A stretch of 64,000 bases of DNA. Origin: Salinivirgaceae bacterium (GTDB lineage: Bacteria > Bacteroidota > Bacteroidia > Bacteroidales > SZUA-534). Below are positions 7,988 to 32,722 of this stretch, piece after piece (position 1 is the first letter of the stretch; each line of letters begins with the position of its first letter). The translations under genes were made by a program, and so were the position numbers. The stretch spans positions 3,214 through 67,213 of the forward strand of contig JAGCFC010000133.1 of assembly GCA_017650325.1 (NCBI GenBank), read 5' to 3'. The notes beneath the pieces are model-generated. The model made no database searches, was not told the DNA's origin, and saw only the letters and a program-made list of their open reading frames with translations.

Positions 7988-8010
7988 TAAAATCATACAG
8001 AAAAAAAATG

Positions 8011-8045
8011 CCCGTCGAGCCAATTTGGACGACGGGTATTTTTTT
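8011..8045 (+). terminator. Rho-independent terminator after glyA
   Basis: CCCGTCG (8011-8017) pairs with CGACGGG (8030-8036). A T-run follows at 8039-8045. Confidence 0.7.
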
Positions 8046-8118
8046 GCAAAAAAACATCAGAAAAAAGTCGGTTTTTGAACCGATATTAATACCTTTACCA
8101 CAATTGAAAAAATGAATC

Positions 8119-8823: not shown

Positions 8824-8863
8824 CATTGCTTTTTTTTCGTTACTATCCTGAAATATTTTCATT

Positions 8864-12136: not shown

Positions 12137-12175
12137 ACATTGATTGATTAACTGATTGATTAGAAGGCGACAACC

Positions 12176-12784: not shown

Positions 12785-12793
12785 TGCCGGATT

Positions 12794-14026: not shown

Positions 14027-14047
14027 CGCATCTTATTTTGAGATGTG

Positions 14048-14055
14048 CAAAAGTA
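14048..14055 (-). promoter_or_regulatory. Candidate -7 promoter box for ribBA
   Basis: The minus strand reads TACTTTTG, 21 nt upstream of the ATG at 14026. Confidence 0.4.
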
Positions 14056-14100
14056 GGCAGAATTGTTAGGTGCTGAAAATTTTCTTTCGCTCCTAACCCG

Positions 14101-17052: not shown

Positions 17053-18174
17053 TTATAATTCAGCAATATATTCCATAAATCCTTGCTTGTTTTCGATTGC
17101 TGTGGTTGTCGGTCTGCCCAAATCCTCACGGGCCCCGATTGAGCACTTGACTTCTATAAGGCTTAATTCGTTGGCATTTTTAGCAGCTTGCAGCGCTTTG
17201 TCTAACGCTTCAAACGAATCGACAGAAACAACATTCTTATAGCCGCAAGCCTTTGCAATGGCAACTAAATCTATCTTGCCAGCAACTGTCGGCTGGCCGC
17301 CAACGGTCTCGTGTGCCGAATTGTTGATGACAACGTGAACGAGATTTTTAGGCGCATTGGCACCAATTACGGCCATAGAACCCATATGCATAAGAACCGC
17401 GCCATCACCGTCAATGCACCATATTTTTTTGTCGGGTTTGTTGATAGCGACACCCAACGCAATTGACGAGCTGTGCCCCATAGAACCAACAGTCAGAAAA
17501 TCATATTTATGGCTTTGGTGGTTTGCCTCACGAATTTCAAAAAGTTCGCGGCTGGCCTTGCCCGTTGTCGAGACAATCGGATCCTCACCTGATACACTCA
17601 CAATATGGCGGATGATTTCCTCGCGAAGCATCGTGTTGTTGTTTTTATACTCAACCTTGCCGTCGTAAGAGAGTCCGCCCTTGCGTACCACAAACGCAAC
17701 ATCCTTGCCTTGTGAGAGCAACGATTTGAAATCTACCATCGCTTTCTCGACTTCTTCATCCGTCGTCTCTTTACCAATAATGAACGACGATATTTCCATA
17801 TCGTCAAGAAGTTTCACCGTGACTTCGCCTTGATAAATGTGTTGCGGCTCATCGTGAACACCTGGCTCACCGCGCCAACCAATAACAAAAACCACGGGGA
17901 TAGCATACACCTTGTCGTTCAACAACGATGCAACGGGGTTAATAATATTGCCCTCGCCCGAATTTTGCATATAAACTACTGGCACTTTGCCTGTTGCCAG
18001 ATGATAACCCGCCGCCAAAGCCGTACAGTTACCCTCGTTTGCAGCAATGATATGGTGTTTCGGATCGATACCGTATTTGTTCATCAAACAGTTGCACAAT
18101 GCCTTCAACTGGCTGTCAGGCACACCTGTATAAAAATCGGCGCCTATTATATTTAAAAGATTCTCTACCTTCAT
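17053..18174 (-). CDS. ppd: Phosphonopyruvate decarboxylase, copy 1 (ThDP-dependent)
   Basis: 373 aa. It has GADFYTGVPDSQLK, NEGNCTALAAGY, MQNSGEGN, GWRGEPGVHDEPQH, and the ThDP motif IDGDGAVLMHMG...NN. It overlaps the upstream gene by 4 nt (ATGA). Confidence 0.85.
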   Translation of the reverse strand: MKVENLLNIIGADFYTGVPDSQLKALCNCLMNKYGIDPKHHIIAANEGNCTALAAGYHLATGKVPVVYMQNSGEGNIINPVASLLNDKVYAIPVVFVIGWRGEPGVHDEPQHIYQGEVTVKLLDDMEISSFIIGKETTDEEVEKAMVDFKSLLSQGKDVAFVVRKGGLSYDGKVEYKNNNTMLREEIIRHIVSVSGEDPIVSTTGKASRELFEIREANHQSHKYDFLTVGSMGHSSSIALGVAINKPDKKIWCIDGDGAVLMHMGSMAVIGANAPKNLVHVVINNSAHETVGGQPTVAGKIDLVAIAKACGYKNVVSVDSFEALDKALQAAKNANELSLIEVKCSIGAREDLGRPTTTAIENKQGFMEYIAEL

Positions 18175-19292
18175 TTTAATTTCGATATTTTATGATATAA
18201 CATATCGATAGTGTCCTCTTCAAGCAAGACTGGATTGTTTTTCAATCTTGTCGGATTGACCGATTTTTTCAGAACATCAAAATCACTTTCCGATTTGATT
18301 TCTGGCGCCTTCAATCCTAACGATTCAACTATATTCTTGAATTTAGCAGCCGCATCCATTGGGGACTTCTCTCCCATTGATTCTGCGATTTCCACAAAAA
18401 CAGAGTCAAGATATTCTCTGCCTCGACTATCGATACATTTTACCGTATTCTCAATCATATACGGCCATAATTCACTGACACACAATGCAGCCGCGTGTCC
18501 GTGCGCGATTCCGTAAAGCGATGTTAGTTTATAGCACATTGCGTGCCCCGCTGTCGTCTGAGTAATGTTTATGGCTTTCCCCGCGATGTTCGCTGCCATC
18601 AGCATATTCTTGTTGCCATCGTATTCGTTTTTCAAATACGAATCCATATTATTGAGAATCAACCTTATCGCGTCTTTCGAATATGCCTTGCTCTCATCCG
18701 TCGAATTGACCGACCAAAAGGCCTCTACAGCGTGGCAAAAAGCGTCAAGCATTGTAACCTTGCGCTGATAATCGGGCAATGTTTCAAGTACCGACGGGTC
18801 GAACAAGACAACCTGCGGAATGCAACTGTAATCCGCAATAGACTGTTTGGCGCCATTATAGTAAATAACCGCAAAACGAGTTGCCTCGCTGCCTGTCCCC
18901 GCTGTTGTCGGGATTGCAAAAAACGGAATGTTGTTCGGCTCGATTTTCTGATTTATGTAATCGCTACCCAATGGCATTGTTGCATACAGTTTTATGCATT
19001 TTGCCACATCCATTGTGCTTCCACCGCCTACGGCAAGAATCGAATCGCATTCAGTTTTTCTGAAAACATCCACGCCTTTCACAACCGATTTGTAATCGGG
19101 ATTCGGTTGGTAATCAGAAAAGAAGACGATTCCTATATTGTTCGCAGCAAAAAAATCTATTATGTACTTTCCGACAGAAAGTTTCTTGAAAGACGAATCG
19201 CAGACAACAATAATTTTTTTTATGCCGCGGTCAAGAAATTGACTTACGAATTCATCGTAGTCTTTGTAGGAAAAAATAGCCGTCTGTTCCAC
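18171..19292 (-). CDS. Group III iron-dependent alcohol dehydrogenase, predicted phosphonoacetaldehyde reductase (PhpC/FomC-like)
   Basis: 373 aa. It has AVGGGSTMDVAK, the metal-site histidines (CHAVEAFW, GIAHGHAAAL), and a GTG start overlapping the pepM-1 stop by 1 nt. It sits between pepM and ppd. Confidence 0.7.
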   Translation of the reverse strand: MEQTAIFSYKDYDEFVSQFLDRGIKKIIVVCDSSFKKLSVGKYIIDFFAANNIGIVFFSDYQPNPDYKSVVKGVDVFRKTECDSILAVGGGSTMDVAKCIKLYATMPLGSDYINQKIEPNNIPFFAIPTTAGTGSEATRFAVIYYNGAKQSIADYSCIPQVVLFDPSVLETLPDYQRKVTMLDAFCHAVEAFWSVNSTDESKAYSKDAIRLILNNMDSYLKNEYDGNKNMLMAANIAGKAINITQTTAGHAMCYKLTSLYGIAHGHAAALCVSELWPYMIENTVKCIDSRGREYLDSVFVEIAESMGEKSPMDAAAKFKNIVESLGLKAPEIKSESDFDVLKKSVNPTRLKNNPVLLEEDTIDMLYHKISKLK

Positions 19293-20590
19293 TATTTTGT
19301 ACCAGGGATAAGTTCAAGTATTTCTTTGACACTCATACACATATCGTTTGCCTCGAGCGAGCGGTGATGCGTGAGAATTAATTTTGCAGTGTTCACCATT
19401 GCGGGATAGGCCGAACGCAACATATGGTTTGCGTAGATAACAACATTCACGCCCCAACTTGCAAGTTCCTCTTCAGTTATCCAGTTGTAGGTTGTCGGCA
19501 CTACCACAATCGGTACCGACGTGTGCTTCTGACGGAATTTCTGGCAGAATTCCTTAATGTCCTCACCAGATTTGTTCTTGCTATGAATCATAATGCCATC
19601 GGCACCCGCCTCAACGTATGCGAAACAACGTTCAAGAGCATCTTCAACTGATTTTCCCGCGATAAGGATCTCGCAGCGTGCGATAATCATAAAATCCTGT
19701 GCGATTTGCGCTCTTTTTCCAGCTCTTATTTTTTCAGAAAAACCTTCGATTGAATCTTGCGTTTGGATTGCGTCGGTGCCAAAAAGAGAGTTTTTCTTCA
19801 AGCCGACTTTGTCTTCAATAATTATGGCCGAAACGCCCAACCGTTCCAAAGTCCTGACCGTGAACACAAAATGCTCGATTTTACCGCCAGTGTCACCATC
19901 AAATATGACTGGTTTGGTGGTGCATTCGAGCGCATCATTCAAACCGTGAAGTCTTGTTGTCAAATCAACGGCCTCAATATCAGGTTTGCCCTTGCTTGTG
20001 GAATCTGTCAGCGAACTAGCCCACATTCCGTCAAACTCTTCGGTCTTGTTGTTGACCTTGACTTTCGTCTTCTCAATGATAAGACCTGTCAAACCAGAAT
20101 GGCTTTCCATAATACGCACAATCGGTTTTGCCGCGATAAGACGTCTTAACATTCTCTGACGGATCTCTGGCGTTGTTCCAATCTCGCGAACTTCAGCATT
20201 CAGTGCAGTTGAAGAAATCCCTGGTGTGTATGGAATATCAACTACTTTGCCGCCCCATTTGGCAATACAGTCTATCACTCTTTGCCGTGTTTCCTTCTGA
20301 ACTCCCGTGAGCCAGTCATCACCGTGAACAACATAATCAGGTTTAAGTTTTTCAAGGTTGGGGACATAGTCCAAAGTCGTTTGCGGAACAACTCTTTCGA
20401 CACCCTTGATGTTTGATACTATTTCCGCACGCTGCTCATATGTCAAGTACGGAAGTCTTTTATAACTCGCAATTGCCGCATCTGTTAAAACACCAACGGT
20501 AACCTCTCCGAGTTTCATCGCCTCGTGAATGATGTTCAAGTGCCCGTGATGAATTAAATCGGCACTCATACCGCAATAGACTGTTTTCAT
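19292..20590 (-). CDS. pepM: Cytidylyltransferase-like domain fused to phosphoenolpyruvate mutase, copy 1
   Basis: 432 aa. The N-terminal ~130 aa is TagD/ECT-type ([25 protein letters not shown]). The C-terminal PEP mutase has [28 protein letters not shown] and IIEDK. Confidence 0.9.
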
Positions 20591-22467
20591 ATACTATTTT
20601 GATTTTTAATTATTTTCATCGATTCCGAATCCTTCTTATACTCAATAAAAGGCATAAATGAAAGGAACGCAAACAGCGGGAAACTGAAATGACTGCTGCC
20701 GCTGAACATACTGAAAAACATACAGCACAGATACATTATGAAGAAAATGCCCAACTCCTTGCGACGCTTCCAATATAGCCACAAACTTGCTATCAAAAAG
20801 ATGATATAAACCACACCGCCAATAATACCCGAATATAGGAACGATGAGATGATTGGATTGTGCGGGAAATCGTGGCGATCTGGATTTTTCCAAAAACGTT
20901 CTCCATACCATTCAAGATATTTGAATCCTTGACCAAAGATTTTCTGCTTAGTATCATAGCGTGTCTGCCATAACTCAAGAGCGTAGCGCCAACGGTCGGT
21001 ACGGGTATTCATCAAATAGTTTACTGTGTCTGCACCTTCCTTTACGAAGAAACTGTGAATAACACTATCTGGCAATTGGTCGGCATACATCGGAAGGCCT
21101 GTGGTGTCATCGCAAGTTAGACTTATGTCTTTAACTTCGATTGTGGAACCTGCGCGTAAAGAATTTAAAAAACATTCCGAATTTAATTTGTCAACATTAA
21201 ATTTATATAAAACCTCACAACGATTCCAAACACCATCTATTGATGTAATTGAAACTGGTAGATTATTTCTATAACCATGCCCATCATTTCCTCCCCAACC
21301 CACATAAAAAGGCCGTTCACCTCCTTCCAACACTCTATATGAGAACGAAAGATTGTATATAATATCTTTATGATAAATAATCGGACGACCAGAATAATAG
21401 ATTTGCCAATAGCCATTAGAGCAGCCTCGCGTTACTCTAATGGCACTATCACCATTTTCTGTAGCGACAAGATTAAATCGTATGCAATCGTGCGGTGTCG
21501 GCAAATAATTCCAACCTTCCAAACCACATTTCAAATCACCATTATGGAACAAATTATCGCCAATAGAATAATCATGCCTCGGCTGACATTTCATCTTCTG
21601 TTTGAAATCAAATTCCGAAAACGTAACGCCATCATCGAACAGTGTGTATAACTTATAATACTTGTATTTTTCATCGAATGACAAATCTTCGTTATATATC
21701 TTGTTGAAAGACAAACAAACAACAGTTCCACCAATAATAGAAAAAACGATTGGCATCAAACTAACCGACAATAATTTTTTATCCCAACGGTATTTGAATA
21801 CGGCCAACATAACTAAAACAAAAACGAGTAACGCAAAAAGCACATACCCTCGCCGTGACATGACCGCCGCGATGTTTATTGCTGATATTGCATTGATTAC
21901 AAAAAGAATTCGAACATTTGTTTTCTTATTAACATAAAACTTTACCGACAGAATGATAGATAATATGAAAAATAGAGCATAGAAATTACAATCGTTGACC
22001 AATGTGAAACCTACTCCCTCAAAAAGTTTGGCACCCAATGGGATTGGCGCACCTAACATCGTCAATCCAAACCTAACAATGGCTATCAATCCTGCCAACA
22101 TCGTAAGCAGAAGAATCCATTTCAATAACGCTTCTGTTTTTTCGCCCGCAAAATACAAATCCGCAAAAGCCACGAAATACAACAACAGCAACAGATTGAT
22201 CGATTCTTTCACGACGTTACTCAACGGCGCGAAATGAGCGAAAAACAATGCAATCACCATTAGCGGCAACAAAACTTTACCAATTTTTGGTTTGGCAATT
22301 CCATTTTTCAGCAAATAATATGCAGAATAAACGACACACGGCACAAGTGTCAAGAAAAATAGATACTTATAGCCGATGAACACCGTGCGACAAAAAAATA
22401 ATGCCAGACATAGGGGCATTATTTTCTCAACATTCCGCAGGCGTTCTATGTTATTCATTTTTAGCAT
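20587..22467 (-). CDS. Wzy/O-antigen-ligase-family membrane protein with an inserted CBM-like beta-sandwich domain
   Basis: 626 aa with about 8 N-terminal TM helices. It has the SRRG motif, the family loop signature RWRYALELW...FGQGFK...[17 protein letters not shown], and C-terminal TMs. Residues ~300-455 are soluble and open with [16 protein letters not shown], a CBM4/9-type opening motif. Confidence 0.7.
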
Positions 22468-22501
22468 TTAAAAGATATCGCTTCCTTATATTATATGCAT
22501 C

Positions 22502-22549
22502 TTCTTTTTTCAATAGTACACTTTATAAAGTGTACTATTGAAAAAAGAA
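22502..22549. repeat. Perfect 48-bp palindrome (24-bp arms, no spacer)
   Basis: TTCTTTTTTCAATAGTACACTTTATAAAGTGTACTATTGAAAAAAGAA was checked base by base. It lies in the only large (279 nt) intergenic gap of the locus. Confidence 0.97.
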
Positions 22550-22746
22550 TCCTAAGATTTATGCCATACAAACAAAACTCTGCAAATTATTTAATATGTC
22601 GACAGACAATCAATCAAATCAACGCCAACACAGCAAATCTTCCTTGTGTAAAAAATAATAATTGAAAAAATCACTATTATTTAAACTATTCTGCTCCTAA
22701 TTCGATTAAATAACCGTCTTTAGAATGACGAGAAACAATCGACTAA

Positions 22747-24846
22747 CTACTTAATCAAAAGCGATCTTGTATCGCTACCTATCTTAACAATGTAAATACC
22801 AGAAGCATTGACTCTGATTTTTGCATCTAAATTGTTAGATGTAGCAACAAGACTTCCTTTATTATTATAAACTCGTATTGAATACTTTGCGTTCTTTACA
22901 ACAATAGTGCGTCCAATTGCGTAAACTATATTTTCTGACGTAATCGATTCTTTGATAACTGTTGAATTTGACAAATGTGAACCTTCAGCTATTCGCGTAT
23001 CTGTTACACCACAACCCCGTTCACATATTGCAGTTTCAGTGCCATCTCTATCTATTGTTGCATCGTTGTTATAAATATAGTTTTTGAAATCATGACCTAA
23101 AGCAGGAATAACATCTTGAGTCACTAAAACTGCATTACAAATCGAGCAATGCCTACCTTCTGACAATCCTGTGTTGGTGCATGTTGGTAGAACTGCCGCA
23201 TCAATCACACCTGTGTGTTCTATAACTTTATAAGTTTGTTCCGCATTAGTGACCCATACTCTTTCTGTCTGTCCGGCATATAACACATTCGATTCAAACA
23301 AAACCTTAAACTTATTACTACCCAATGATATATATGTCATTCGTTCATGAGGTTCATTTGACTCAATGGTACCTATAACATTACCAGTCAAGCCATAGTA
23401 TTTATATCGTTCTTCTGACCAAGTATTTGTTTCGGGAATATATTTATAATCAGCAGAAATGGTTAAATTACCGTCAGCATCATAAAAAGATTCACGTTTT
23501 GAAGTACACCATTCATGTTCGGAACATTGGTAGTAGGAGATTTCAACTATTTGATTTCCATTATTATCATACATGTATTCATGGTTATCCGTACATTCGT
23601 TACCATAAAAAAGAGAGGATCGTACTAACTTCCCATTATCATCATAAACATATTCTGTTTTCCAATTATTCATCCACAAATTTGCTGTTTGATTCCAACT
23701 GTAATGATTTCTTATTGTTTTGTTTCCATTGGCATCGTAAATCCATTCATCTTTTACCTCACCAACCCATTCATTCTTCTCGGAATTCCAATTGAATTTA
23801 GCATCAAGTATTCGGTTACCATTTGCATCATAATCATATTCTGTTTTCGCGCAATCTATCCATGAGTTTGTCTCTGCTTTAAAAATGCTTAATACATAAA
23901 GTATTTGTTGACCAATTTCGTTGTAAGTATATTCGAATTTTCTTGTATTCACCAATGCATTATGTTCCAATTTCCATTCTGAACAAGTTACTACGACTTT
24001 GTTTTCTTTTGAATTATAAACATATTCTGTATGTGTTTTATTCAACCAAGACTGAGTTAATTCGTTTCTCACATAGACATTACTCGATATGGGCTTCCCA
24101 ATTTCATTGAAAGTCGAATCTTCTTTTCGTTCGCACAGCCATGAGTCAGGGTCGTTACTCCAAACGTAATCAGCATAATGGATTTGATGACCATTATCAT
24201 CATATTTATATTCTTTTTTATAAATATACCTCCATGCGTTTATCTCTGTATCCCAGCCATAACGAATTTCAAAAGTTATTTTTTTATCACCATTAAAAGT
24301 ATATTCTGTAAAATATCCATATCCATTGCCATCCCAAATATTTATTTCGGGATTCCATCGATAACGAGCAAAAGATGTTCTATTACCATAATCATCATAC
24401 ATTGTTTCGTCTTTTGTGTCGTTATTCCATGTATTTGTTTCCGCATTCCAACGATATTCAATAGAAAGTGTCATATTTCCATTTGCATCATAGGCATACT
24501 CTGTTTTTCCAACATTATTCCACAAGTTTGTTGTAACGTTCCACCTATAATTAATACTAAGTATCTTATTTCCAGCCACGTCATAAGTGTATTCATGTTT
24601 AATACTTTCCTCCCAAGATCCTGTTTGGTTATTCTTTTTGTAGATAACATACTGGATTGCTCTTCCTTTAGAGTCATATATATATTCATATTTGTTTGTG
24701 CCTCGAACCTCAGATTCTTTCACTATTTTGCAAACAGAGTGATCTAATATGCCATTAGAATACCACTCATTATCAAAAAAACTCTGAGCATTTGCAAAAA
24801 AAGCACTCATCAATATGATACCAATAGTAAAAACAAATCTTTTCAT
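22747..24846 (-). CDS. T9SS-secreted repeat protein (YD-like 31-residue repeats, Cys-rich module, type A C-terminal sorting domain)
   Basis: 699 aa with a signal peptide (MKRFVFTIGIILMSAFFANAQ). It has about 14 tandem repeats of K-x-E-Y-x-Y-D-x-x-G-N-x6-Y-x-W-N-x2-T-N-x-W. The C-terminus ...ASGIYIVKIGSDTRSLLIK is typical of the T9SS type A CTD. Confidence 0.75.
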   Translation of the reverse strand: MKRFVFTIGIILMSAFFANAQSFFDNEWYSNGILDHSVCKIVKESEVRGTNKYEYIYDSKGRAIQYVIYKKNNQTGSWEESIKHEYTYDVAGNKILSINYRWNVTTNLWNNVGKTEYAYDANGNMTLSIEYRWNAETNTWNNDTKDETMYDDYGNRTSFARYRWNPEINIWDGNGYGYFTEYTFNGDKKITFEIRYGWDTEINAWRYIYKKEYKYDDNGHQIHYADYVWSNDPDSWLCERKEDSTFNEIGKPISSNVYVRNELTQSWLNKTHTEYVYNSKENKVVVTCSEWKLEHNALVNTRKFEYTYNEIGQQILYVLSIFKAETNSWIDCAKTEYDYDANGNRILDAKFNWNSEKNEWVGEVKDEWIYDANGNKTIRNHYSWNQTANLWMNNWKTEYVYDDNGKLVRSSLFYGNECTDNHEYMYDNNGNQIVEISYYQCSEHEWCTSKRESFYDADGNLTISADYKYIPETNTWSEERYKYYGLTGNVIGTIESNEPHERMTYISLGSNKFKVLFESNVLYAGQTERVWVTNAEQTYKVIEHTGVIDAAVLPTCTNTGLSEGRHCSICNAVLVTQDVIPALGHDFKNYIYNNDATIDRDGTETAICERGCGVTDTRIAEGSHLSNSTVIKESITSENIVYAIGRTIVVKNAKYSIRVYNNKGSLVATSNNLDAKIRVNASGIYIVKIGSDTRSLLIK

Positions 24847-24879
24847 AATTGTACGTTAAAATGAGGAAACGGGAATAAT

Positions 24880-26055
24880 CTATTTCGCTTTTTCTATTAT
24901 GTTTTCGATTATAAATTCTGCAGTTGCATCTATTTCATTAAAATGTACTTTTTTAGGCAAAGATACTAGAAATCTATCTTTCACTTTAACAAGCAATTCA
25001 TCAGTATAAGTCAACACTCCATTGTCCACATTCTCAATACCATCAAGATAAATTGACTCTCGGTTTTTCTTCTGCATATCAGTTAACGAGAACTTTGATT
25101 CATCAATAGAAACACCATCGCTGTTAATAATTATAGGATAACCACCAATATTACCATCAAATCCGGGACAATGCAACTTAGTTTGTTTACCATATCGAAC
25201 TGCATTTAAAATTCCCTGAATTATTTCGAAATTGCTCGAAGCATTCATCATATTACGTTTCCCATCAACAGGCATAGATATTTTGCACTTGGAAAAGGTG
25301 GAATCTAGTACTTCAAGTTTTTTCCCCTGGTATTCTGCACAAATAAGTTGTTTCACCCCTTCTGTCTGACCTTCCTTACTTATAACAACATCATGAAAAT
25401 GTGCAACAGCGTAAGTAATATCAATATTCCACCAGTCTTTAATATTATTCTCCTGAGAAAGTGCAAATTTTATGCGAGGAAGCAAGTGATTGATATTACC
25501 AGAACCAAAATCAGGATAAGCTTTGCCTGCGGTTTTTAGCCATGGTATAACAGCATCTGAATATGACGTATTAATTACAATTGCATCTGATTGTGCAATT
25601 GTATATGCTTCCATAATATTCTTGGTATATTTAATTGACAATGGAGTCCAAATACCATACGCACGGAAATTTGACCACGATATGCTACCATATTTTAGTC
25701 CGGGATATGCTCGACTTGAATTAACAATAATATCTGGACAAATATCCGAAATAGCATCAACAATTGTAGAAATATTATCCAAATCCACACCAGATTTTAT
25801 GATAACATTAGTCCTGTTTTGACGTCTGATAAACGACGCAACACGAATAATGTTGACATTCATTTCCATTTTTTCATACGAACGACCAGCAACAACGATT
25901 TCAATTTTATCATCATTAGTTGACATCAGGTAATCCAGCAGATAACATCCTACGCTACCTAACCCAATAATCATTATTTTTATTGGACGATTATCCAAAT
26001 TTTTGTTTTTAATTTCACTTAATTTTTCGTTTAAAGTTTTCATATTATTAATCAC
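24880..26055 (-). CDS. Rossmann-fold NAD(P) oxidoreductase, saccharopine / carboxynorspermidine dehydrogenase-like (tentative)
   Basis: 391 aa. It has an N-terminal GxGxxG (KIMIIGLGSVGCYLLDYL) followed by ...VVAGRS.... Length and layout resemble the saccharopine dehydrogenase family. It overlaps the upstream gene by 4 nt. Confidence 0.45.
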   Translation of the reverse strand: MINNMKTLNEKLSEIKNKNLDNRPIKIMIIGLGSVGCYLLDYLMSTNDDKIEIVVAGRSYEKMEMNVNIIRVASFIRRQNRTNVIIKSGVDLDNISTIVDAISDICPDIIVNSSRAYPGLKYGSISWSNFRAYGIWTPLSIKYTKNIMEAYTIAQSDAIVINTSYSDAVIPWLKTAGKAYPDFGSGNINHLLPRIKFALSQENNIKDWWNIDITYAVAHFHDVVISKEGQTEGVKQLICAEYQGKKLEVLDSTFSKCKISMPVDGKRNMMNASSNFEIIQGILNAVRYGKQTKLHCPGFDGNIGGYPIIINSDGVSIDESKFSLTDMQKKNRESIYLDGIENVDNGVLTYTDELLVKVKDRFLVSLPKKVHFNEIDATAEFIIENIIEKAK

Positions 26056-26792
26056 ATTAGTTTTCTAACAAATTCATAATCAGCAACAGTATTGCAATTA
26101 AACCATTCTGAAAAAGAAACCACATCATATTCTGTAGGGTTCATATCACCGAAATACGCTTGAACAATCTCAAGGTTTGTGCCATGTAATTGGGTTTCAG
26201 TCAAAGTACAAACAGCCTCGTGAAGTTTTTCTGAAGAAGCGAATTTCCACATTTGCCCACTATTAAAAATTGCCCTAAAAGCTTCTGGAACAATCAATGT
26301 TTTATGATTGGTATCATACAGATAACGTGGTTTTCCATCAGAGTTTATGTATAATGCAACTGCCTTGTCTGAATAAATCGGTTCACGGTTAATGGTAATG
26401 ACATTTTTTGATGAATCATAAACTTGTTTGAATGTATCTGCATTAAAAAACAAATCACCCTCTACAAAGGTAACATCACCTTGTTCGTTAACTGCTTCAA
26501 TTCCTTTAAAGAGGCTATAACCTGAACCATAATCTCTAAAATGTTCATTAAAGACAAGTTCTATTTTGTCTCGATAAGATCCAAGTTCATTATTTGCAAA
26601 TTGCTCCAATTTATCAAACAAATAACCGCCTACAATTATATATTTATCGTAGTACCCACAATTTTTCAACAACTGAGACAAAAGAGAATACTTAGAGTTG
26701 TCTGTGTAATATAGACATTTGAGTGTATCCTCTTTTGTATCACGATTAAAGCGAGTGGCAGTTCCTGCTACTGTAATTATTAAGTATTTCAT
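26052..26792 (-). CDS. Nucleotidyltransferase-fold protein (LicC / sugar-phosphate NTP-transferase-like, tentative)
   Basis: 246 aa. The N-terminal MKYLIITVAGTATRFN resembles the (A/G)GxGTR(L/F) NTP-binding loop. It has 4-nt overlaps on both sides. Confidence 0.5.
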   Translation of the reverse strand: MKYLIITVAGTATRFNRDTKEDTLKCLYYTDNSKYSLLSQLLKNCGYYDKYIIVGGYLFDKLEQFANNELGSYRDKIELVFNEHFRDYGSGYSLFKGIEAVNEQGDVTFVEGDLFFNADTFKQVYDSSKNVITINREPIYSDKAVALYINSDGKPRYLYDTNHKTLIVPEAFRAIFNSGQMWKFASSEKLHEAVCTLTETQLHGTNLEIVQAYFGDMNPTEYDVVSFSEWFNCNTVADYEFVRKLM

Positions 26793-27781
26793 TTTTCAAT
26801 GCTATTTACGCACATTGTTAGACCTTCGTCTAATGATATAATTGGTTTCCAATTGGTTCTGTTCCGTATTTTATCGGTATTAAGAAGTCTACGCTCTGGA
26901 TCAGATTTGCGGAAACCCTCAAATTTGATTTCCACATCCACAATACCCATCTTGTTGGCAATCTTTTTCACAAGTTCAATAATTGTAACTTCTTCTTCTG
27001 TTGCCACATTATAAACAGTACCATCAAGTGCATTTTCAGATTCAATTAATGCCATAACAGCCCGACAACTATCAATATTATGAAGAAATGTCCGCTTATT
27101 AACCTTAGAATTCTCTAAAAGAGTTACTACGTGGCTAGCAAGTAAATTGTCAATGATATGTGGAATTATGTGTTCAGCAAAACGCTCGTGTTTACTATAC
27201 ACATTAGCAAAACGAATTGAACATCCTTTAATATGCTTTTTATCAACAGCATCTTTCATAAAAAATTCTGTCATCAATTTACCACAAGCATAACTTGTTC
27301 GTTGACTATGTTCTGCTGTTGACATTGCCAAATAATCACTTTCCTTAACACCTCCGTTCTCATTCCAAGATTGCATAGAATATACCTCGGAAGTAGAGCA
27401 ATTAATAAAAGTATCGGCTTTTAATGCAATTGCTCGTTCCAAAAAGTCTTTCATTGCTAACACATTTGTTTGGAAAGTACTTTCCACTTCATAGAAATGT
27501 TTTGTATGAACAACCGCTGCACAATTAATAAAAACCAAACGGTGATACTCAGATTGCATACTCCTCACTTTTTCACAAACCTCATCCATTTGGACTAGGT
27601 TGTTAATATCATAATTATAGAATATAAACGAAGGATTATTAACTATGGCTTTAACAGTATCGATAGAACTTGCAAAAAAATTATCGAACCCGATTACAGT
27701 ATGCCCCTGAGCAACGAATTGTTGTGATAGTTCACTACCAGTCATCCCTGTAACGCCACTTATAACATATAGATTTTTCAT
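26789..27781 (-). CDS. NAD-dependent epimerase/dehydratase (extended SDR)
   Basis: 330 aa. It has GVTGMTGSEL (GxxGxxG) and the catalytic YACGK (YxxxK). Confidence 0.8.
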   Translation of the reverse strand: MKNLYVISGVTGMTGSELSQQFVAQGHTVIGFDNFFASSIDTVKAIVNNPSFIFYNYDINNLVQMDEVCEKVRSMQSEYHRLVFINCAAVVHTKHFYEVESTFQTNVLAMKDFLERAIALKADTFINCSTSEVYSMQSWNENGGVKESDYLAMSTAEHSQRTSYACGKLMTEFFMKDAVDKKHIKGCSIRFANVYSKHERFAEHIIPHIIDNLLASHVVTLLENSKVNKRTFLHNIDSCRAVMALIESENALDGTVYNVATEEEVTIIELVKKIANKMGIVDVEIKFEGFRKSDPERRLLNTDKIRNRTNWKPIISLDEGLTMCVNSIEK

Positions 27782-28503
27782 ACTCCAAATTTTAATCTTG
27801 TTTTATAAAATTCATCAACATTGCTAGTAAAACTATTTTGTTCCACAGCATAATTATATTTCAATTTAATAAATTCACAATTTTCGGTATTAGTATCAAA
27901 AATAACAAATTGAGAATAAGGATTAATATTTCTCGGCTGTCCTACTGAACCAGGATTAATAAAAATAGTTTTTTTCTGATTCCGTGTATTTACATTATCT
28001 GTGTTAAAAAACTTTTCAAAAAAGATAGGACGATGCGAATGTCCCATCAACACTACATCGTAAGAATAGTAAAGAGACAGATCGTTGGAACAGTCAAACT
28101 TACCCCAATAAGTATCATCAATCGTGCCGTGGACAGCAAGAAAATGTTTTCCATCTATCAAGAACTCTGACTTACCATCCTTTGTCATCTCTGTCAAGAT
28201 ATAGTTCTTACTTTGTTCTGTAAGAAGAGTTTTTGTATTTTTGGCACAATCAACGCCTCGCCGAGACGAAAAACGACCGTAATTATCATTGATTATAGCA
28301 TCCTCATGATTACCAAAAATATTACACACAATAGGAATTTTCAAAGCAGCAACCATCTCAACAACCTCGTTGGAATGAGGGCCATAATCAATCAAATCAC
28401 CCAACAAAGCAACAAAATCCAACTCCATATTTTTAATATATGAAAATACAGACTCAAGTGCTGTTTTGTTTCCATGAATATCTGACAAGATAAGCAATTT
28501 CAT
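27778..28503 (-). CDS. Metallophosphoesterase (YfcE/MJ0936-like calcineurin-fold)
   Basis: 241 aa. It has SDIHGN, GDLIDYG, GNHE, VHG and GHSH, the complete metallophosphoesterase motif set. Confidence 0.85.
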   Translation of the reverse strand: MKLLILSDIHGNKTALESVFSYIKNMELDFVALLGDLIDYGPHSNEVVEMVAALKIPIVCNIFGNHEDAIINDNYGRFSSRRGVDCAKNTKTLLTEQSKNYILTEMTKDGKSEFLIDGKHFLAVHGTIDDTYWGKFDCSNDLSLYYSYDVVLMGHSHRPIFFEKFFNTDNVNTRNQKKTIFINPGSVGQPRNINPYSQFVIFDTNTENCEFIKLKYNYAVEQNSFTSNVDEFYKTRLKFGV

Positions 28504-29627
28504 TTCTTCAAAAACTCCATTAATGCTTTTTTATTTTCTTGAGGTGTTGATTTCGGTCGACCCAGATCTTTGCGTGCCCCTTTGCACACCTTAATTTCTA
28601 CAAATGTTAACAAATTGCAGCCGTTAATTTCAGAAAGAACACGATCCAATTCCAAAACAGTTGAAATCGAATAAACTTTTTCGTATCCACAAGCTTTTGC
28701 AATCGTAGGAAGGTCTATTGACAATCCAACCGTAGGTTGTCCGCCTACAGAATCATGCGCTCCATTATTTAATACAAAATGAACTAAATTATGAGGTTTA
28801 CGAGTTCCTATTGTAGCAAGTCCACCCATTTGCATTATAGTAGCACCATCACCGTCTATACAATAAATGCGTCTGTCATTTTTTTGCATTGCTATAGCCA
28901 AAGCAATTTGGCTAGCATGTCCCATACTACCAACAGTTAAGAAGTCTCGGTCGTGCCCCATTCCGTGTTTTTCGCGTAATTCGTAAAGCTCACGACTTGC
29001 CATACCAGTAGTGGAAACAAATGCTGTTCGTTCATCTGCAGAAAGCATTATTTTTTCTATAGCATCCTCACGTTTCATTTCAGCACTCACAACATTGTTT
29101 TTTTGCAACACATAGTCACTAAATGTGCCTTTGCGAATCACAAATGCATAAGGAGCCTTGTTATTCTTTATGTATGAATATGCCTTCTCAAATTGTTTCG
29201 GCAAATCAGATTCGTTATCGGAAAGAATATCATACGGAACTTTCATCGCGTCAAGCAACTCACATGTCACCTTCCCTTGTTTTACGTGCTGAGGTTCATC
29301 GTGTACTCCAGGTTCGCCACGCCAACCGATTAGAATCAACAATGGAACTGAATATACATCAGGATCAATAAGTGAAAGCAAAGGGTTTATCATATTACCT
29401 TCACCAGAATTCTGCATATAAACAAGCGGAATTTTGTTGGTAGCGAAATAGTATCCAGCAGCAAGTGCCGTTGCCGAACCCTCATTAGCAGAAATAATAT
29501 GTTTTTCTTCCGGTGCATTGTCTGTAACGTATGCGCAGAAGTTTTTTAAAAGAGAATCAGGCACACCAGCGAAAAAATCCGTGCCATGATTCAAAAGCAA
29601 TTCGTAAAATATTTTTGGTTGAATCAT
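28500..29627 (-). CDS. ppd: Phosphonopyruvate decarboxylase, copy 2
   Basis: 375 aa with the same motif set as copy 1: GVPDSLLK, NEGSATALAAGY, MQNSGEGN, GWRGEPGVHDEPQH, IDGDGATIMQMG. By eye it is about half identical to copy 1. Confidence 0.85.
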   Translation of the reverse strand: MIQPKIFYELLLNHGTDFFAGVPDSLLKNFCAYVTDNAPEEKHIISANEGSATALAAGYYFATNKIPLVYMQNSGEGNMINPLLSLIDPDVYSVPLLILIGWRGEPGVHDEPQHVKQGKVTCELLDAMKVPYDILSDNESDLPKQFEKAYSYIKNNKAPYAFVIRKGTFSDYVLQKNNVVSAEMKREDAIEKIMLSADERTAFVSTTGMASRELYELREKHGMGHDRDFLTVGSMGHASQIALAIAMQKNDRRIYCIDGDGATIMQMGGLATIGTRKPHNLVHFVLNNGAHDSVGGQPTVGLSIDLPTIAKACGYEKVYSISTVLELDRVLSEINGCNLLTFVEIKVCKGARKDLGRPKSTPQENKKALMEFLKK

Positions 29628-29637
29628 AATCTATCAT

Positions 29638-30939
29638 CTATTTTGTTCCAGGAATAAGTTCTAAAATTTCTTTAATAGGCATACACATATCGTTAACTTC
29701 CAACGAACGTTCTGCCTCAAGTATTTTTTCTGCGCATTTTCTCATAGCGGGATAGGAGGCTCTAAGCATGTGGTTAGCGTAAATGATAATATTAGCGCCC
29801 CACTCGCAAAGTTCTTTTTCTGTAAACTGATTATATGTTGTAGGAACAAGAACGATAGGAATGTTTTTATATACATTCCTAAATTTAGCACAAAAATCTT
29901 TTATATCTGCGCCACTCTTATCCTTAGAATGTATCATTATTCCATCTGCTCCGGCCTTAACTGCTGCGAATGCTTTTGTAATCGCCTCATCGACACTATA
30001 ACCAGCGATGATTTCTTCAATTCTGGCAATTATCATAAAGTCTTTAGTAACCTGAGCACGTTTGCCTGCACTGATTTTTTCACAAAATTCCTCCTCAGTT
30101 GCCAACACTTGTTTAGCCTCAGTTCCGAATAGGGAGTTCTTTTTCAAACCCTTTTTATCTTCAATAATAACTGCACTAACACCATTACGTTCCAATGTAC
30201 GTACAGTAAACACGAAATGCTCGGGAATGTCGCCTGTGTCACCGTCATATATTATCGGCTTTGTTGTACATTCCAAAATGTCGGTTAACGACTGCATACG
30301 AGTGGTCAAATCAACTGCTTCAATGTCAGGTTTACCTTTCGATGTGGAATCTGTTAAAGACGAAGACCACATACCGTCAAATTGGTGGATGCCGTCTTCC
30401 TTTTCAACAGAGATGTTTTCAGCTATAAGTCCAGACAATCCAGAATGAGCTTCAAGAATACGCACAATCGGTTTGGCAGCTAAAAGGCGACGCAACCTTG
30501 CACGACGAATATCAGGTGTGGTACCTATTGTTTTTGCATTCTCGTTAAGAGCAGTAGAATTAATTCCTTGTGTATATGGAATTTCAATAATTTGACCGCC
30601 CCATTCTTTCATAGCCTCAAAGCAATCTTCACGGATTTTAGACAGATAGTTGTTTTTCCAATCATCACCGTGAATCATGAAATCGGGTTTAAATTTTTTA
30701 AGGTTAGACACATAACTCCATTCCTCTTGCGGAACAACTTTGGAGACACCTTTGATGTTCTCAACAACCTGTTTTCTTTGTTCGTATGTGAGATAGGGTA
30801 ATCTCTTATGTGCTACAATAGCGCTATCGGTAAGTAAACCAATAATAAGTTGGCCATATGAAGCACCTTTGTTAATGATATTGATAATACCAGGATGAAT
30901 AATATCTCCTGTAATACCAAGGTAAACTGTTTTTGACAT
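29638..30939 (-). CDS. pepM: Cytidylyltransferase-like domain (degenerate HxGH) fused to phosphoenolpyruvate mutase, copy 2
   Basis: 433 aa. The PEP mutase half is conserved ([33 protein letters not shown], ...[10 protein letters not shown]). The N-terminal domain reads GITGDIIHPGIINII where copy 1 has HHGH. Confidence 0.9.
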   Translation of the reverse strand: MSKTVYLGITGDIIHPGIINIINKGASYGQLIIGLLTDSAIVAHKRLPYLTYEQRKQVVENIKGVSKVVPQEEWSYVSNLKKFKPDFMIHGDDWKNNYLSKIREDCFEAMKEWGGQIIEIPYTQGINSTALNENAKTIGTTPDIRRARLRRLLAAKPIVRILEAHSGLSGLIAENISVEKEDGIHQFDGMWSSSLTDSTSKGKPDIEAVDLTTRMQSLTDILECTTKPIIYDGDTGDIPEHFVFTVRTLERNGVSAVIIEDKKGLKKNSLFGTEAKQVLATEEEFCEKISAGKRAQVTKDFMIIARIEEIIAGYSVDEAITKAFAAVKAGADGIMIHSKDKSGADIKDFCAKFRNVYKNIPIVLVPTTYNQFTEKELCEWGANIIIYANHMLRASYPAMRKCAEKILEAERSLEVNDMCMPIKEILELIPGTK

Positions 30940-30980: not shown

Positions 30981-32012
30981 TTATTCTAATAAAGACTTAT
31001 CTTCTTTTATATATTTTATTAATCGTCTATAAGCCGTTTCCAAATTTACTGTTGCTCTCCATCCCAATTTATTTAGTTTAGCAGAAGTCAAACGCAACAA
31101 GACATCGGGTGCATATCCAAAATTTTTATTTTGTGGTATATCGTAGTCGACTTTTATCGCATTTTCCGCAATCTCTCTTACAACAAGTTCCGCAATTTCA
31201 CTTATACTTCTAGTCTCATTATCATTACATACATTATACGATTGCCCATCTTCTCCATTCAAGAGTATTGTAAAAATACCTCGTACGGTATCTGTTGTAT
31301 AACAAAAATTAGATATTGATTTTCCTGCTGTATGAAGGATGATATCCTTTCCACTAATAACACTATTGGCGAATTGCATCGACACCCTATTATCAGACAA
31401 AGGTATGCCGGCGCCAAATGTTAAGGCGAGCCTAACTATTTTTACTGGCAACTTATACTGATGATAATAACACATACATAAACATTCCGCAGCTCGTTTG
31501 CCTTCAGAATAAGATGATCTGGCAGATGTAAGATCTATAAAACCAAGTTTATCCTCAGAAACAGGATTCTGTGTCGCGGTTGTTATGCCATAAACCTCCA
31601 TAGAAGAAAGATACGCCATACTTTTAATCTTACATTTATTTGCATAATTAAGAATATTCTTTGTCCCTGAAATTGCAATGTCTAACGTATCCACAGGAGC
31701 ATCAACCATCAATTTAGATTTTGTATTTGAAGCGCAATGAATAATAAAATCAACAATTATCTCATCTTCTAATGGATTCCTAACATCACCAACAATATAA
31801 TTAACTTTATCTCCAAACAAAGACTTCGCTTTTTGAATGTCTCTAACAAGAGCATATATCTGTAAAGGTATATCAATAGCCAATAATGTTCGAATACAAA
31901 GGGAACCTATTAAACCCGTTGCTCCTGTAACAAGAATCTTAGCATTAAATAGTTTATTCCATGCGATGTTTTTATCGGCTGTTATTATTTTTATATCTTC
32001 TTGTAATATCAT
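30981..32012 (-). CDS. NAD-dependent epimerase/dehydratase/reductase (SDR)
   Basis: 343 aa. It has VTGATGLIGS and the catalytic YSEGK. It lies directly downstream of the IspD-like gene. Confidence 0.8.
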   Translation of the reverse strand: MILQEDIKIITADKNIAWNKLFNAKILVTGATGLIGSLCIRTLLAIDIPLQIYALVRDIQKAKSLFGDKVNYIVGDVRNPLEDEIIVDFIIHCASNTKSKLMVDAPVDTLDIAISGTKNILNYANKCKIKSMAYLSSMEVYGITTATQNPVSEDKLGFIDLTSARSSYSEGKRAAECLCMCYYHQYKLPVKIVRLALTFGAGIPLSDNRVSMQFANSVISGKDIILHTAGKSISNFCYTTDTVRGIFTILLNGEDGQSYNVCNDNETRSISEIAELVVREIAENAIKVDYDIPQNKNFGYAPDVLLRLTSAKLNKLGWRATVNLETAYRRLIKYIKEDKSLLE

Positions 32013-32014
32013 AG

Positions 32015-32722
32015 TTATCCATTATTATTTCTACATTTCATAATCCCCTCAAACATATAAAAATCAAGCGGTGTTGTTATTTTAATATTCTCTGGTGGAC
32101 CTATAACTTTAGGAACAGATCTGTTATACATTTGCATCAAAGTAACAGAATCAATCACATCATTATTGCCTTTTGCTGTTTCTCTTTCATACAAATCCAA
32201 TATTTCACTAAGTATGAAACACTGTGGCGCTCTTAATAAGAAACACTGCTCACGAGGAATAATAGTTCGAGAATCACCACATTCTCGATATATGGTTTCA
32301 ATAGCCGGCGAACATACTACTGCAGAACCATTTTTATTTGTACATTCAATCGCCTCAGAAATAGTTTTATGATCAATCAATGGTCGAACTCCGTCATGAA
32401 TTAACACGACTGCCTCTTCATAATACTTTTTTGCACAGCGTAAGCCTATTAAACGAGATTCATGTCCAGTTTTGCCACCAGACACAATATCTTTTACTTT
32501 ATTAAGACCATATTCCCGAACTAAATCTTCTGTCTTTTTAATCCATTGTTCAATACAAACGACAATAATACCATCTATAATATCTAGTTGTTGAAAGACA
32601 TTAATTGTATAGACAATTATAGGCATACCACCAACTTCTAAAAATTGTTTTGGAATATCGCCCAAGTTCATACGCTTGCCTACTCCGCCTGCAAAGATCA
32701 CAGCCACATTTTTCATTTTCAA
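32015..32722 (-). CDS. IspD/TarI-family cytidylyltransferase (CDP-polyol-type)
   Basis: 235 aa. The N-terminal VAVIFAGGVGKRM...PKQFL is typical of the IspD/TarI family. Confidence 0.8.
   Translation of the reverse strand: MKMKNVAVIFAGGVGKRMNLGDIPKQFLEVGGMPIIVYTINVFQQLDIIDGIIVVCIEQWIKKTEDLVREYGLNKVKDIVSGGKTGHESRLIGLRCAKKYYEEAVVLIHDGVRPLIDHKTISEAIECTNKNGSAVVCSPAIETIYRECGDSRTIIPREQCFLLRAPQCFILSEILDLYERETAKGNNDVIDSVTLMQMYNRSVPKVIGPPENIKITTPLDFYMFEGIMKCRNNNG

Follow-up and report, generated by a model that had tools for sequence, protein, structure and literature searches.

Two phosphonate-supply cassettes of separate history and differing predicted chemistry at a surface-polysaccharide locus of an uncultured Salinivirgaceae bacterium

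Phosphonate decorations give microbial surfaces a different charge and change their resistance to phosphatases and how the immune system recognizes them, and the capsule of Bacteroides fragilis, which bears 2-aminoethylphosphonate (AEP), is the textbook example. In the aepXYZ system of B. fragilis polysaccharide B (PS-B) and in the PntC-AEPT system of Treponema denticola, a capsule locus is supplied by a phosphoenolpyruvate (PEP) mutase and a phosphonopyruvate decarboxylase (Ppd). Two such enzyme pairs were found in the DNA analyzed here, a 64-kb window from an uncultured Salinivirgaceae (Bacteroidales) bacterium of the gut or rumen, where they are attached to a capsule-type polysaccharide locus and are referred to as cassettes 1 and 2. 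As in the described systems, activation by a nucleotidyltransferase and LicD-like transfer are predicted, and a DUF6564 protein of cassette 2 shares the fold of PntC and LicC. The window differs from both systems in holding no AEP transaminase (AEPT); its branch enzymes would be an iron-containing alcohol dehydrogenase (Fe-ADH) in cassette 1 and, in cassette 2, a dehydrogenase with the fold of L-lactate and malate dehydrogenases (LDH/MDH).

For cassette 1, the closest described systems are the early steps of fosfomycin synthesis in Streptomyces (Fom1/FomC) and the PhpC-type branch to 2-hydroxyethylphosphonate (HEP), with which it shares the mutase fusion, Ppd and a group-III Fe-ADH. Fom1 turns 2-HEP into its cytidine monophosphate (CMP) derivative, CMP-HEP, and 23.6% of PEP mutase (Ppm) proteins carry a PF01467 fusion (Rice et al., PMC6697681). 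The HEP branch is recognized by a PhpC-like Fe-ADH beside ppm and ppd and makes up 8.5% of neighborhoods, and HEP-modified exopolysaccharides are known (Li & Horsman, PMC8942020). Unlike the fosfomycin pathway, cassette 1 has no downstream tailoring of the Fom3/FomD/Fom4 type, and CMP-HEP, a transient intermediate in that route, is here presumably the final donor for LicD transfer onto the capsule. A further difference from the Fom1 and PhpC systems is that cassette 1 is tied to an O-antigen-ligase-like membrane protein in Salinivirgaceae.

For cassette 2, the nearest counterparts are the "post-Ppd other" clusters (Fibrobacter succinogenes gene cluster family (GCF) 60 and archaeal GCFs 869 and 685), which have no AEPT and contain PF12850 and PF16363 (PMC8942020). 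F. succinogenes makes N-(2-hydroxyethyl)-AEP, for which reductive amination has been proposed (PMC8942020). Cassette 2 fits this type in having ppm and ppd, none of the seven catalogued branch enzymes, and both PF12850 and PF16363; the same set beside ppm and ppd was also present in four Methanobrevibacter loci (L078, L081, L083 and L085). The published account of these clusters names the two Pfam domains only, whereas the DUF6564 protein, the LDH/MDH-fold dehydrogenase, the six-gene size, the spread across phyla and the presence in Bacteroidales are described here.

The overall best explanation of the window, judged reasonably probable, is a polysaccharide locus served by two cassettes for phosphonate supply, of different origin and with different predicted chemistry. 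The more limited statement, that two intact, selected and AEPT-independent phosphonate cassettes with separate histories are attached to one surface-glycan locus, is made with high confidence. Cassette 1 (Mem626-PepM-1-Fe-ADH-Ppd-1) spans 17053-22467 and cassette 2 (six genes) spans 24880-30939. Gene identities in the window were assigned by Pfam and NCBIfam profile searches, using curated equivalog cutoffs where available. The features of this region are as follows.

29638-30939, minus strand: pepM-2, cytidylyltransferase-like domain plus PEP mutase, 433 aa (PF01467 + PF13714)
28500-29627, minus strand: ppd-2, phosphonopyruvate decarboxylase, 375 aa (TIGR03297)
27778-28503, minus strand: calcineurin-like metallophosphoesterase, YfcE subfamily, 241 aa (PF12850/PF00149, TIGR00040)
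26789-27781, minus strand: extended short-chain dehydrogenase/reductase (SDR), nucleoside diphosphate (NDP)-sugar dehydratase/decarboxylase type, 330 aa (PF16363/PF01370)
26052-26792, minus strand: DUF6564 protein, candidate phosphonate cytidylyltransferase, 246 aa (PF20202)
24880-26055, minus strand: LDH/MDH-fold NAD(P)-dependent oxidoreductase ("Sacchrp_dh-like"), 391 aa (387 from the downstream start)
22747-24846, minus strand: DUF3836 repeat protein, 699 aa (PF12930)
22502-22549, no strand: perfect 48-nt palindrome in the 280-bp spacer upstream of Mem626
20587-22467, minus strand: Mem626, polytopic O-antigen-ligase/Wzy_C-like membrane protein with a central soluble domain, 626 aa
19292-20590, minus strand: pepM-1, Fom1-like bifunctional cytidylyltransferase/PEP mutase, 432 aa (PF01467 + PF13714)
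18171-19292, minus strand: group-III Fe-ADH, predicted phosphonoacetaldehyde reductase, 373 aa (PF00465/PF25137)
17053-18174, minus strand: ppd-1, phosphonopyruvate decarboxylase, 373 aa (TIGR03297)

A preliminary description of this DNA had proposed two diverged mutase/decarboxylase pairs, and the four open reading frames (ORFs) concerned, all on the minus strand at the coordinates given there, scored above their family cutoffs. PepM-1 and PepM-2 reached 415 and 392.7 bits against the TIGR02320 PEP-mutase equivalog (cutoff 319.55 bits), and Ppd-1 and Ppd-2 reached 473 and 509.9 bits against the TIGR03297 Ppd equivalog (cutoff 312.5 bits). In both PepM proteins PF01467 (CTP_transf_like) lies N-terminal to PF13714 (PEP_mutase), and both contain the Ppm catalytic motif EDKxGLKKNS (EDKKGLKKNS in PepM-2). 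The EDKxxxxxNS motif sets Ppm apart from the rest of the isocitrate lyase family (PMC6697681). The two fusions, described earlier as sharing their C-terminal end, are 63% identical over 431 aa without gaps and have the same 11-residue terminus; the Ppd proteins, given as about half identical, are 51% identical. The reported difference in composition was also recovered: GC content at third codon positions (GC3) is 0.45-0.49 in cassette 1, which is host-like (0.45-0.59 in flanking host genes), and 0.25-0.31 in the six genes of cassette 2, values that fit most of the low-GC variable block. Given identities of only 63% and 51% together with differing composition and differing nearest relatives, recent tandem duplication was ruled out, as the preliminary description had held, and the two pairs have separate histories.

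Pfam scans of every sizeable ORF in the window recovered no class-V (PhnW/AEPT) aminotransferase, in agreement with the claim that neither cassette has an AEP transaminase. The only pyridoxal phosphate (PLP) enzymes present are a DegT-family protein (43042-44295) and a housekeeping serine hydroxymethyltransferase. The DegT protein had been singled out as a possible PhnW; it is not PhnW-like, its best scores being to LegC/PseC-type sugar aminotransferases, and it was rejected as a hidden PhnW. Distinct neighbors were confirmed for each pair, namely the Fe-ADH gene (18171-19292) between pepM-1 and ppd-1 and a four-gene set (24880-28503) after ppd-2. The idea drawn from these neighbors, that one locus makes two head groups, was upheld in part: the distinct neighbors and distinct predicted chemistry make two different head groups plausible, but the locus is less singular than was implied, with precedents in L087, L024 and L086 (discussed below). 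The description of both pairs as one operon could not be confirmed. The cassettes share a strand, but the DUF3836 gene and the 280-bp spacer part them, and a single operon is not established. In comparison with relatives the region divides into two units of evolution, one a variable block and the other a conserved terminal unit. A scan for sigma-70 promoters and terminators was uninformative for this Bacteroidota genome.

The N-terminal domain of PepM-1 matched the crystallized cytidylyltransferase (CyTase) domain of Fom1 (5X3D) with E = 7.5e-59. Its nucleotide-binding motifs (HHGH and PGISST) and its EDK mutase motif are intact, so that cassette 1 has both cytidylyltransferase motifs, and it has no separate nucleotidyltransferase. 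As in the HEP branch, a group-III Fe-ADH (PF00465 + PF25137) lies next to ppm and ppd; its gene, flanked by pepM-1 and ppd-1, overlaps both at start and stop codons (translationally coupled), and this position is kept in relatives. Since an Fe-ADH combined with a Fom1-like cytidylyltransferase domain predicts CMP-HEP, it is quite likely that cassette 1 makes this compound. The PepM-1 mutase domain would isomerize PEP to phosphonopyruvate, which Ppd-1 would decarboxylate to phosphonoacetaldehyde. The Fe-ADH would then reduce phosphonoacetaldehyde to HEP, the Fom1-like N-terminal domain of PepM-1 would activate HEP with cytidine triphosphate to CMP-HEP, and a LicD-type transferase would place HEP on the glycan.

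Conservation of cassette 1 was followed through Mem626, the first gene of the conserved terminal unit, whose stop overlaps the pepM-1 start by 4 bp. Mem626 has no Pfam match; among its homologues (n = 79), one is named as an O-antigen ligase family protein [Salinivirgaceae] and one carries PF02018 (CBM_4_9) and PF04932 (Wzy_C). Its named homologues, like the members of the ≥90%-identity cluster of the serine hydroxymethyltransferase in the window, derive from uncultured Salinivirgaceae MAGs. Seven homologue contexts (41-83% identity) were sampled from related Salinivirgaceae metagenome-assembled genomes (MAGs). Mem626 closes the 3' end of a variable polysaccharide locus in six of the seven, and the contig of the seventh (L090) starts too close to tell. 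PepM, Fe-ADH and Ppd follow Mem626, directly or past one small gene, in four (L087, L088, L092 and L093), and in L087 and L093 the tetratricopeptide repeat (TPR)-ribBA flank seen in the window continues after the cassette, which places it at the same chromosomal site. Across these four relatives protein identity is 98% for PepM, 93-96% for Ppd and 82-91% for Fe-ADH, and Mem626 has diverged to 56-77% in the relatives that carry the cassette. Synonymous-codon identity of the cassette is 55-79% (61-73% for pepM-1 alone), compared with 58-60% for the flanking ribBA and 63-64% for the TPR gene. Recent horizontal transfer as the cause of the 98% PepM-1 identity was rejected on this match between the 61-73% synonymous identity and the flanking housekeeping genes. 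High protein identity combined with host-like synonymous divergence points to vertical inheritance under strong purifying selection, from which a functional cassette 1 would follow. Exact PepM proteins occurred on a few metagenome contigs only, with identical gene order in all.

Cassette 2 has a different distribution. Its dehydrogenase has 2973 homologues, 59-77% identical and including gut and rumen metagenomes, in Bacteroidales, Treponema, Lachnospiraceae, Christensenellaceae, Muribaculum, Methanobrevibacter and Methanomethylophilaceae. Using the dehydrogenase family, a genome collection was scanned and the best 80 loci from named genomes (L007-L086) were compared. The gene was accompanied by DUF6564 in 76 of the 80, by the metallophosphoesterase and the SDR in 73 each, by PepM in 72 and by Ppd in 66; LicD genes lay near the module in half (40/80). 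From these companions, cassette 2 is recognized as a horizontally shared, widespread module of six predicted genes (PepM, Ppd, metallophosphoesterase, extended SDR, DUF6564 and LDH/MDH-fold dehydrogenase). PepM matches in the module loci aligned from the N-terminal cytidylyltransferase domain onward in 74 of 76 cases, and the PepM fusion is thus the rule here too. The module cassette has neither an AEPT nor an Fe-ADH. No class-V aminotransferase recurs in the 80 loci, where the sole recurrent aminotransferase is DegT-like (7 loci); judged by eye, other recurrent neighbors look like glycosyltransferases and TagF-like enzymes.

The closest named-genome relatives of cassette 2 are rumen Treponema loci (L008-L010, the three Treponema loci that include PepM and Ppd), which have the exact gene order of the window with identities of 84-92% for PepM-2 and 73-81% for Ppd-2. 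Against L010, the PepM is 92% and the Ppd 81% identical in protein, and PepM-2 is 49% identical at synonymous codons (38-49% for the cassette overall). Recent horizontal transfer between cassette 2 and the Treponema loci was likewise rejected on these synonymous identities; with synonymous sites near saturation, the sharing of the module appears old and its proteins constrained. In the window, the five genes from ppd-2 through the dehydrogenase each overlap their neighbor by 4 bp. Two loci (L042 and L075) are minimal cassettes of PepM, dehydrogenase, Ppd and LicD genes only, so that a cassette can be completed by the dehydrogenase without the other three genes. The dehydrogenase therefore appears to be the branch enzyme, and the remaining trio a set for tailoring and activation that can be separated from it.

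As a separate observation, a 604-aa fusion of a LicC/PntC-like nucleotidyltransferase and a Thr/Ser-phosphate-decarboxylase-like PLP domain (E = 4.5e-49 to 6OUX) was encoded near the minimal cassette in L042 (15551-17365, minus strand) and again in L089 (3393-5207), a locus without PepM where it adjoins an ApbA/Octopine_DH-domain protein. It was considered as a PntC-AEPT and rejected on the identity of the C-terminal domain (6OUX); it may be a route to a CDP-aminoalcohol donor.

The accessory enzymes of cassette 2 were examined by motif, profile and structure model. DUF6564 had no sequence match in the PDB. Its AlphaFold2 (AF2) model (predicted local distance difference test (pLDDT) 90.5) was matched by Foldseek to inositol-1-phosphate cytidylyltransferase (4JD0), KdsB, RmlA and GlmU, and also to the phosphonate-specific PntC (PntC-AEPT, 6PD2) and LicC (1JYK). 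The window protein matches PF20202 only, and several homologues (53-57% identity) carry PF20202 together with PF12804. A profile alignment to the IspD family (hhalign, E = 3e-4) starts at the N-terminal VAGTATRF, a motif of the GxG(T/K)R type. On the model, then, DUF6564 is a protein of PntC/LicC-type nucleotidyltransferase fold. Among PDB sequences the SDR is most similar to dTDP-glucose 4,6-dehydratase and UDP-glucuronate decarboxylase, and GxxGxxG, STSEVY and YxxxK motifs were read by eye in its translation. All metallophosphoesterase motifs are likewise present by eye in the phosphoesterase, whose start overlaps the ppd-2 stop by 4 bp. Literature searches on DUF6564, on saccharopine dehydrogenase with phosphonoacetaldehyde and on CMP-phosphonates since 2019 found no characterization of the module and no mention of DUF6564 in the searchable literature.

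The dehydrogenase matched PF03435 just below threshold (24.3 vs 25.1 bits) and over its Rossmann part only (residues 27-114), and a profile search against PDB sequences gave no significant match (8DEB, E = 0.16; 4INA, E = 1.6). The top 50 Foldseek matches of its AF2 model (pLDDT 84.3) were all LDH/MDH (E ~1e-8, template modeling (TM) score 0.5-0.63, ~350 columns). With that superfamily it shares the two-domain fold and, in a weak profile alignment, GxGxxG and FGSG...R(I/L)KF motifs; it differs from LDH/MDH in being 13-17% identical, in its length (391 vs ~315 aa) and, as aligned, in a swapped His-carboxylate pair. The residue correspondence comes from a weak local hhalign profile alignment (E = 0.007) to a genuine LDH encoded in L054, in which invariant R194 falls on Arg171, H190 on Asp168 and E228 on His195. 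In the same weak alignment the His-carboxylate pair is present but swapped relative to His195-Asp168 of LDH. These features suggest a carbonyl substrate with an adjacent anionic group.

PepM-2 differs from PepM-1 in its fused domain. HxGH is the nucleotide-binding motif of the GCT/CCT/ECT cytidylyltransferase family; in PepM-2 it reads HPGI, with the second His lost, while the mutase motif is intact and the (P/Q)GI(S/N)ST motif is kept in both window PepMs. Motifs were counted in an alignment of PepM ORFs, seven rows of which are without the N-terminus. In the window PepM-2 and in three Treponema orthologues the first motif is HPGI or HHGI and the second is kept as GINS(T/S), and 65 firmicute and archaeal PepM ORFs keep HxGH (HEGH) with YNENVK-like residues in place of the ISTT-type motif. 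One of the two cytidylyltransferase motifs is thus degenerate in the module PepM fusions, by lineage, and both are kept in PepM-1 and Fom1. With DUF6564 in cassette 2 and the PepM-1 domain in cassette 1, each cassette would appear to have one fully competent activating enzyme.

A scheme for cassette 2 can be proposed on this basis. PepM-2 and Ppd-2 would make phosphonoacetaldehyde, on which the LDH/MDH-fold NAD(P) dehydrogenase would act as the branch enzyme. The SDR and the metallophosphoesterase would tailor the intermediate, probably while it is nucleotide-linked, and DUF6564 would supply activation, a role assigned to it because the PepM-2 fused domain has lost the second His of HxGH. LicD would then transfer the product, and the capsule would carry two different phosphonates. 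What the sequences and models show are the gene identities, folds, motifs, conservation, selection and distribution; for both cassettes we infer every substrate, and also the order of the cassette-2 steps, the product and the pairing of LicD proteins with donors. A second product that differs from HEP is likewise an inference, the putative branch enzyme being an LDH/MDH-fold dehydrogenase whose substrate is itself predicted. That cassette 2 makes a different, nucleotide-activated and tailored C2 phosphonate, neither plain HEP nor plain AEP, is somewhat favored; that this product is of the N-(2-hydroxyethyl)-AEP type is possible and rather doubtful. A broader reading is offered tentatively, in which the module is a transaminase-free early phosphonate branch that builds its head group (N-(2-hydroxyethyl)-AEP or one as yet undescribed) on a nucleotide handle, and the capsule bears two C-P decorations, each with its own LicD. 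The presence of three LicD genes in the locus, matching three predicted donors (CMP-HEP, the module product and a CDP-alditol from an IspD plus SDR gene pair), is suggestive.

A number of results weigh against these assignments. In cassette 1, the Fe-ADH departs from the Fom1 and PhpC systems in scoring under the TIGR03405 phosphonate-ADH equivalog cutoff (135.1 vs 423.7 bits), and its role as phosphonoacetaldehyde reductase is predicted from gene context. In cassette 2, the alignment of the dehydrogenase to LDH (E = 0.007) is no stronger than a Rossmann-only control (0.001). A reductive aminase like saccharopine reductase or carboxynorspermidine dehydrogenase was considered for this protein and, though chemically possible, set aside for want of specific support (sub-threshold Pfam match, insignificant PDB matches, LDH/MDH fold); the modeled fold does not support a saccharopine-type reductive amination. 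The PepM-2 domain may still be active despite lacking one His of HxGH. The link to F. succinogenes, drawn at the level of sequence families, consists of two shared Pfam domains (PMC8942020). One locus, L055 (7631-13399), holds all four accessory genes although neither PepM nor Ppd is encoded within 10 kb; after them comes a gene for a 707-aa protein bearing a citrate-lyase-ligase/CTP_transf_like domain, and on this evidence the accessory set may not be strictly dedicated to phosphonates. Finally, the dehydrogenase could simply reduce phosphonoacetaldehyde to HEP, in which case both cassettes would start alike.

This last point leads to the alternative that survives best, though it is unlikely: both cassettes deliver 2-HEP, the LDH/MDH-fold dehydrogenase being a non-orthologous phosphonoacetaldehyde reductase, with a sugar or alditol nucleotide as the substrate of the other three enzymes (metallophosphoesterase, SDR, DUF6564) and the second cassette providing dosage or serving another acceptor. 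An LDH/MDH-like dehydrogenase does suggest carbonyl reduction beside an anionic group, and HEP or phosphonoacetate has been suggested as the product of atypical NAD(P) oxidoreductases that follow Ppm-Ppd (Li & Horsman, PMC8942020). Conservation of this dehydrogenase at 59-77% across domains of life nevertheless suggests a specific function. The accessory genes without a nearby PepM in L055 and the NDP-sugar type of the SDR would fit a role in sugar-nucleotide chemistry, but the trio is translationally coupled to ppd-2 and the dehydrogenase and occurs with PepM/Ppd in about 70 of 80 loci. Doubling of one branch does occur, as L087 has two cassettes each with an Fe-ADH; against this, L024 and L086 have the module and an Fe-ADH as well, an enzyme they would not need were HEP already a product of the module.

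It is quite improbable that cassette 2 makes ordinary 2-AEP, or that one or both cassettes feed AEP. Such a route would need either a PhnW/AEPT gene in another part of the genome or a module dehydrogenase that aminates phosphonoacetaldehyde reductively and directly, using ammonia and NAD(P)H, and it would give the locus a chemistry like that of B. fragilis PS-B, the third gene having been displaced. In favor of this reading, no other surface phosphonate is nearly as common as AEP (56% of neighborhoods, PMC8942020), and DUF6564 resembles the AEP-specific PntC in fold. With 64 kb of the genome visible, a phnW may also lie outside the window, a further point that weighs against two AEPT-independent products. 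On the other side, a class-V aminotransferase was neither found in the window nor recurrent in the 80 module loci, and the sole nucleotidyltransferase-aminotransferase-like fusion (L042) is Thr/Ser-phosphate-decarboxylase-like and not an AEPT. The dehydrogenase is without similarity to known amine or amino-acid dehydrogenases, and the three extra conserved enzymes would be needless for plain AEP.

That one cassette is a decaying or silent remnant beside a single operating pathway is very improbable, and the selection analysis leaves practically no room for a dead cassette: the degenerate HxGH (HPGI) of PepM-2 and the absence of cassette 1 downstream of Mem626 in three of seven relatives (which shows it to be dispensable in some lineages) would fit a remnant, but the ORFs are full length with catalytic motifs intact and equivalog cutoffs passed, HPGI/HHGI is common to the Treponema orthologues and so a conserved state and not recent decay, and protein identity far exceeds synonymous identity in cassette 1 (98% vs 61-73%) and cassette 2 (92% vs 49%). 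This purifying selection on both also answers the concern, raised with the preliminary description, that one of the two might be silent.

Returning to the explanation of two cassettes with two predicted products, the pairing has precedents. About 18% of ppm-containing genomes have two ppm neighborhoods (PMC8942020). In the related Salinivirgaceae MAG L087, two PepM/Ppd/Fe-ADH cassettes occupy the same site (6109-9638 and 11902-15443), and the upstream one pairs a PepM 81% identical to PepM-1 with an Fe-ADH that shares just 36% identity with that of the window, so that the doubling of cassettes, with different partners, is recurrent in the Salinivirgaceae lineage. The Firmicute loci L024 and L086 combine the module with the Fe-ADH branch inside one gene array. 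Together, L087, L024 and L086 make the dual design a recurrent and not a unique one.

The locus is a variant of known phosphonoglycan biosynthesis, and the uncharacterized module is the part most worth pursuing. The novelty lies in recognizing the six-gene module, in describing what it is composed of and where it occurs, and in finding it paired with a conserved HEP cassette in Bacteroidales. No branch enzyme has been assigned for about 13% of the ppm neighborhoods known (PMC8942020), and the locus suggests that one of these branches is a discrete module of six genes crossing the boundary between bacteria and archaea. Its product, once defined, would fill a gap in the phosphonate pathway map, and the module might explain transaminase-free synthesis of N-(2-hydroxyethyl)-AEP. 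On the reading of the module as a novel branch, abundant Bacteroidales of gut and rumen would share it with spirochaetes, Firmicutes and methanogenic archaea through horizontal transfer. The conserved CMP-HEP cassette beside it would be a natural system in which to ask why two C-P groups are placed on one polymer.

The remainder of the polysaccharide locus forms, with the cassettes, a long co-oriented gene array on the minus strand of the window that runs from the UpxY gene (44913) downwards. It has the features of a Bacteroidota capsular polysaccharide locus, with an UpxY-type antiterminator, an initiating transferase, a Wzx flippase and a Wzy polymerase on one strand. The genes upstream of pepM-2 are as follows.

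44362-44913, minus strand: UpxY/NusG-like antiterminator, 5' end of the polysaccharide locus (PF02357 + KOW)
43042-44295, minus strand: DegT aminotransferase, best match LegC/PseC-type sugar aminotransferase
42438-43019, minus strand: 193-aa ORF with no family match, between the DegT gene and the FGE-sulfatase-domain gene
41655-42398, minus strand: FGE-sulfatase-domain protein, 247 aa, weak GldK/EgtB-like matches
40968-41636, minus strand: Bac_transf initiating transferase
40012-40953, minus strand: aldo-keto reductase inside the capsule locus
38074-40010, minus strand: split transketolase (N-terminal subunit 38994-40010, C-terminal subunit 38074-38997)
36434-37249 and 37274-38023, minus strand: two LicD-family phosphotransferases (PF04991)
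35121-36437, minus strand: Wzy
33673-35124, minus strand: Wzx
32760-33680, minus strand: third LicD-family phosphotransferase, candidate CMP-phosphonate/CDP-alditol head-group transferase (PF04991)
30981-32722, minus strand: IspD-family cytidylyltransferase followed by an extended SDR, directly upstream of pepM-2

The third LicD protein (32760-33680) is the best window match for most of the module-associated LicD genes. The IspD-family protein scored 144 bits, just under the cutoff of the ribitol-5-phosphate cytidylyltransferase subfamily (166 bits), and its pairing with an SDR resembles CDP-alditol synthesis by TarI/TarJ or Bcs1. Near the module, IspD-like genes were found in 11 and SDR343-like genes in 9 of the 80 loci. 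The IspD plus SDR pair, taken with three LicD genes, suggests a third phospho-donor for the same polymer. In principle a transketolase might lengthen an aldehyde, phosphonoacetaldehyde for instance, an idea that gained no support from the tests made here. The FGE-sulfatase-domain and 193-aa genes (41655-43019) are placed between the DegT gene and the initiating transferase.

Between the cassettes, the DUF3836 protein (699 aa) has a signal-peptide-like N-terminus and many YxYD/GN-type repeats. The GC3 of its gene (0.256) matches the low-GC3 variable block, its position is empty in the relative L087, and the protein is predicted to take no part in phosphonate synthesis. The 48-nt palindrome was considered as a conserved boundary element and rejected as such, since it is not kept in relatives (absent at the corresponding junction in L087, L088 and L091-L093). 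It recurs in the same species (L003) and lies 35-82 nt upstream of the Mem626 start with T-run and A-run flanks, where the RNA is predicted to fold at -27.7 kcal/mol (z = -7.9).

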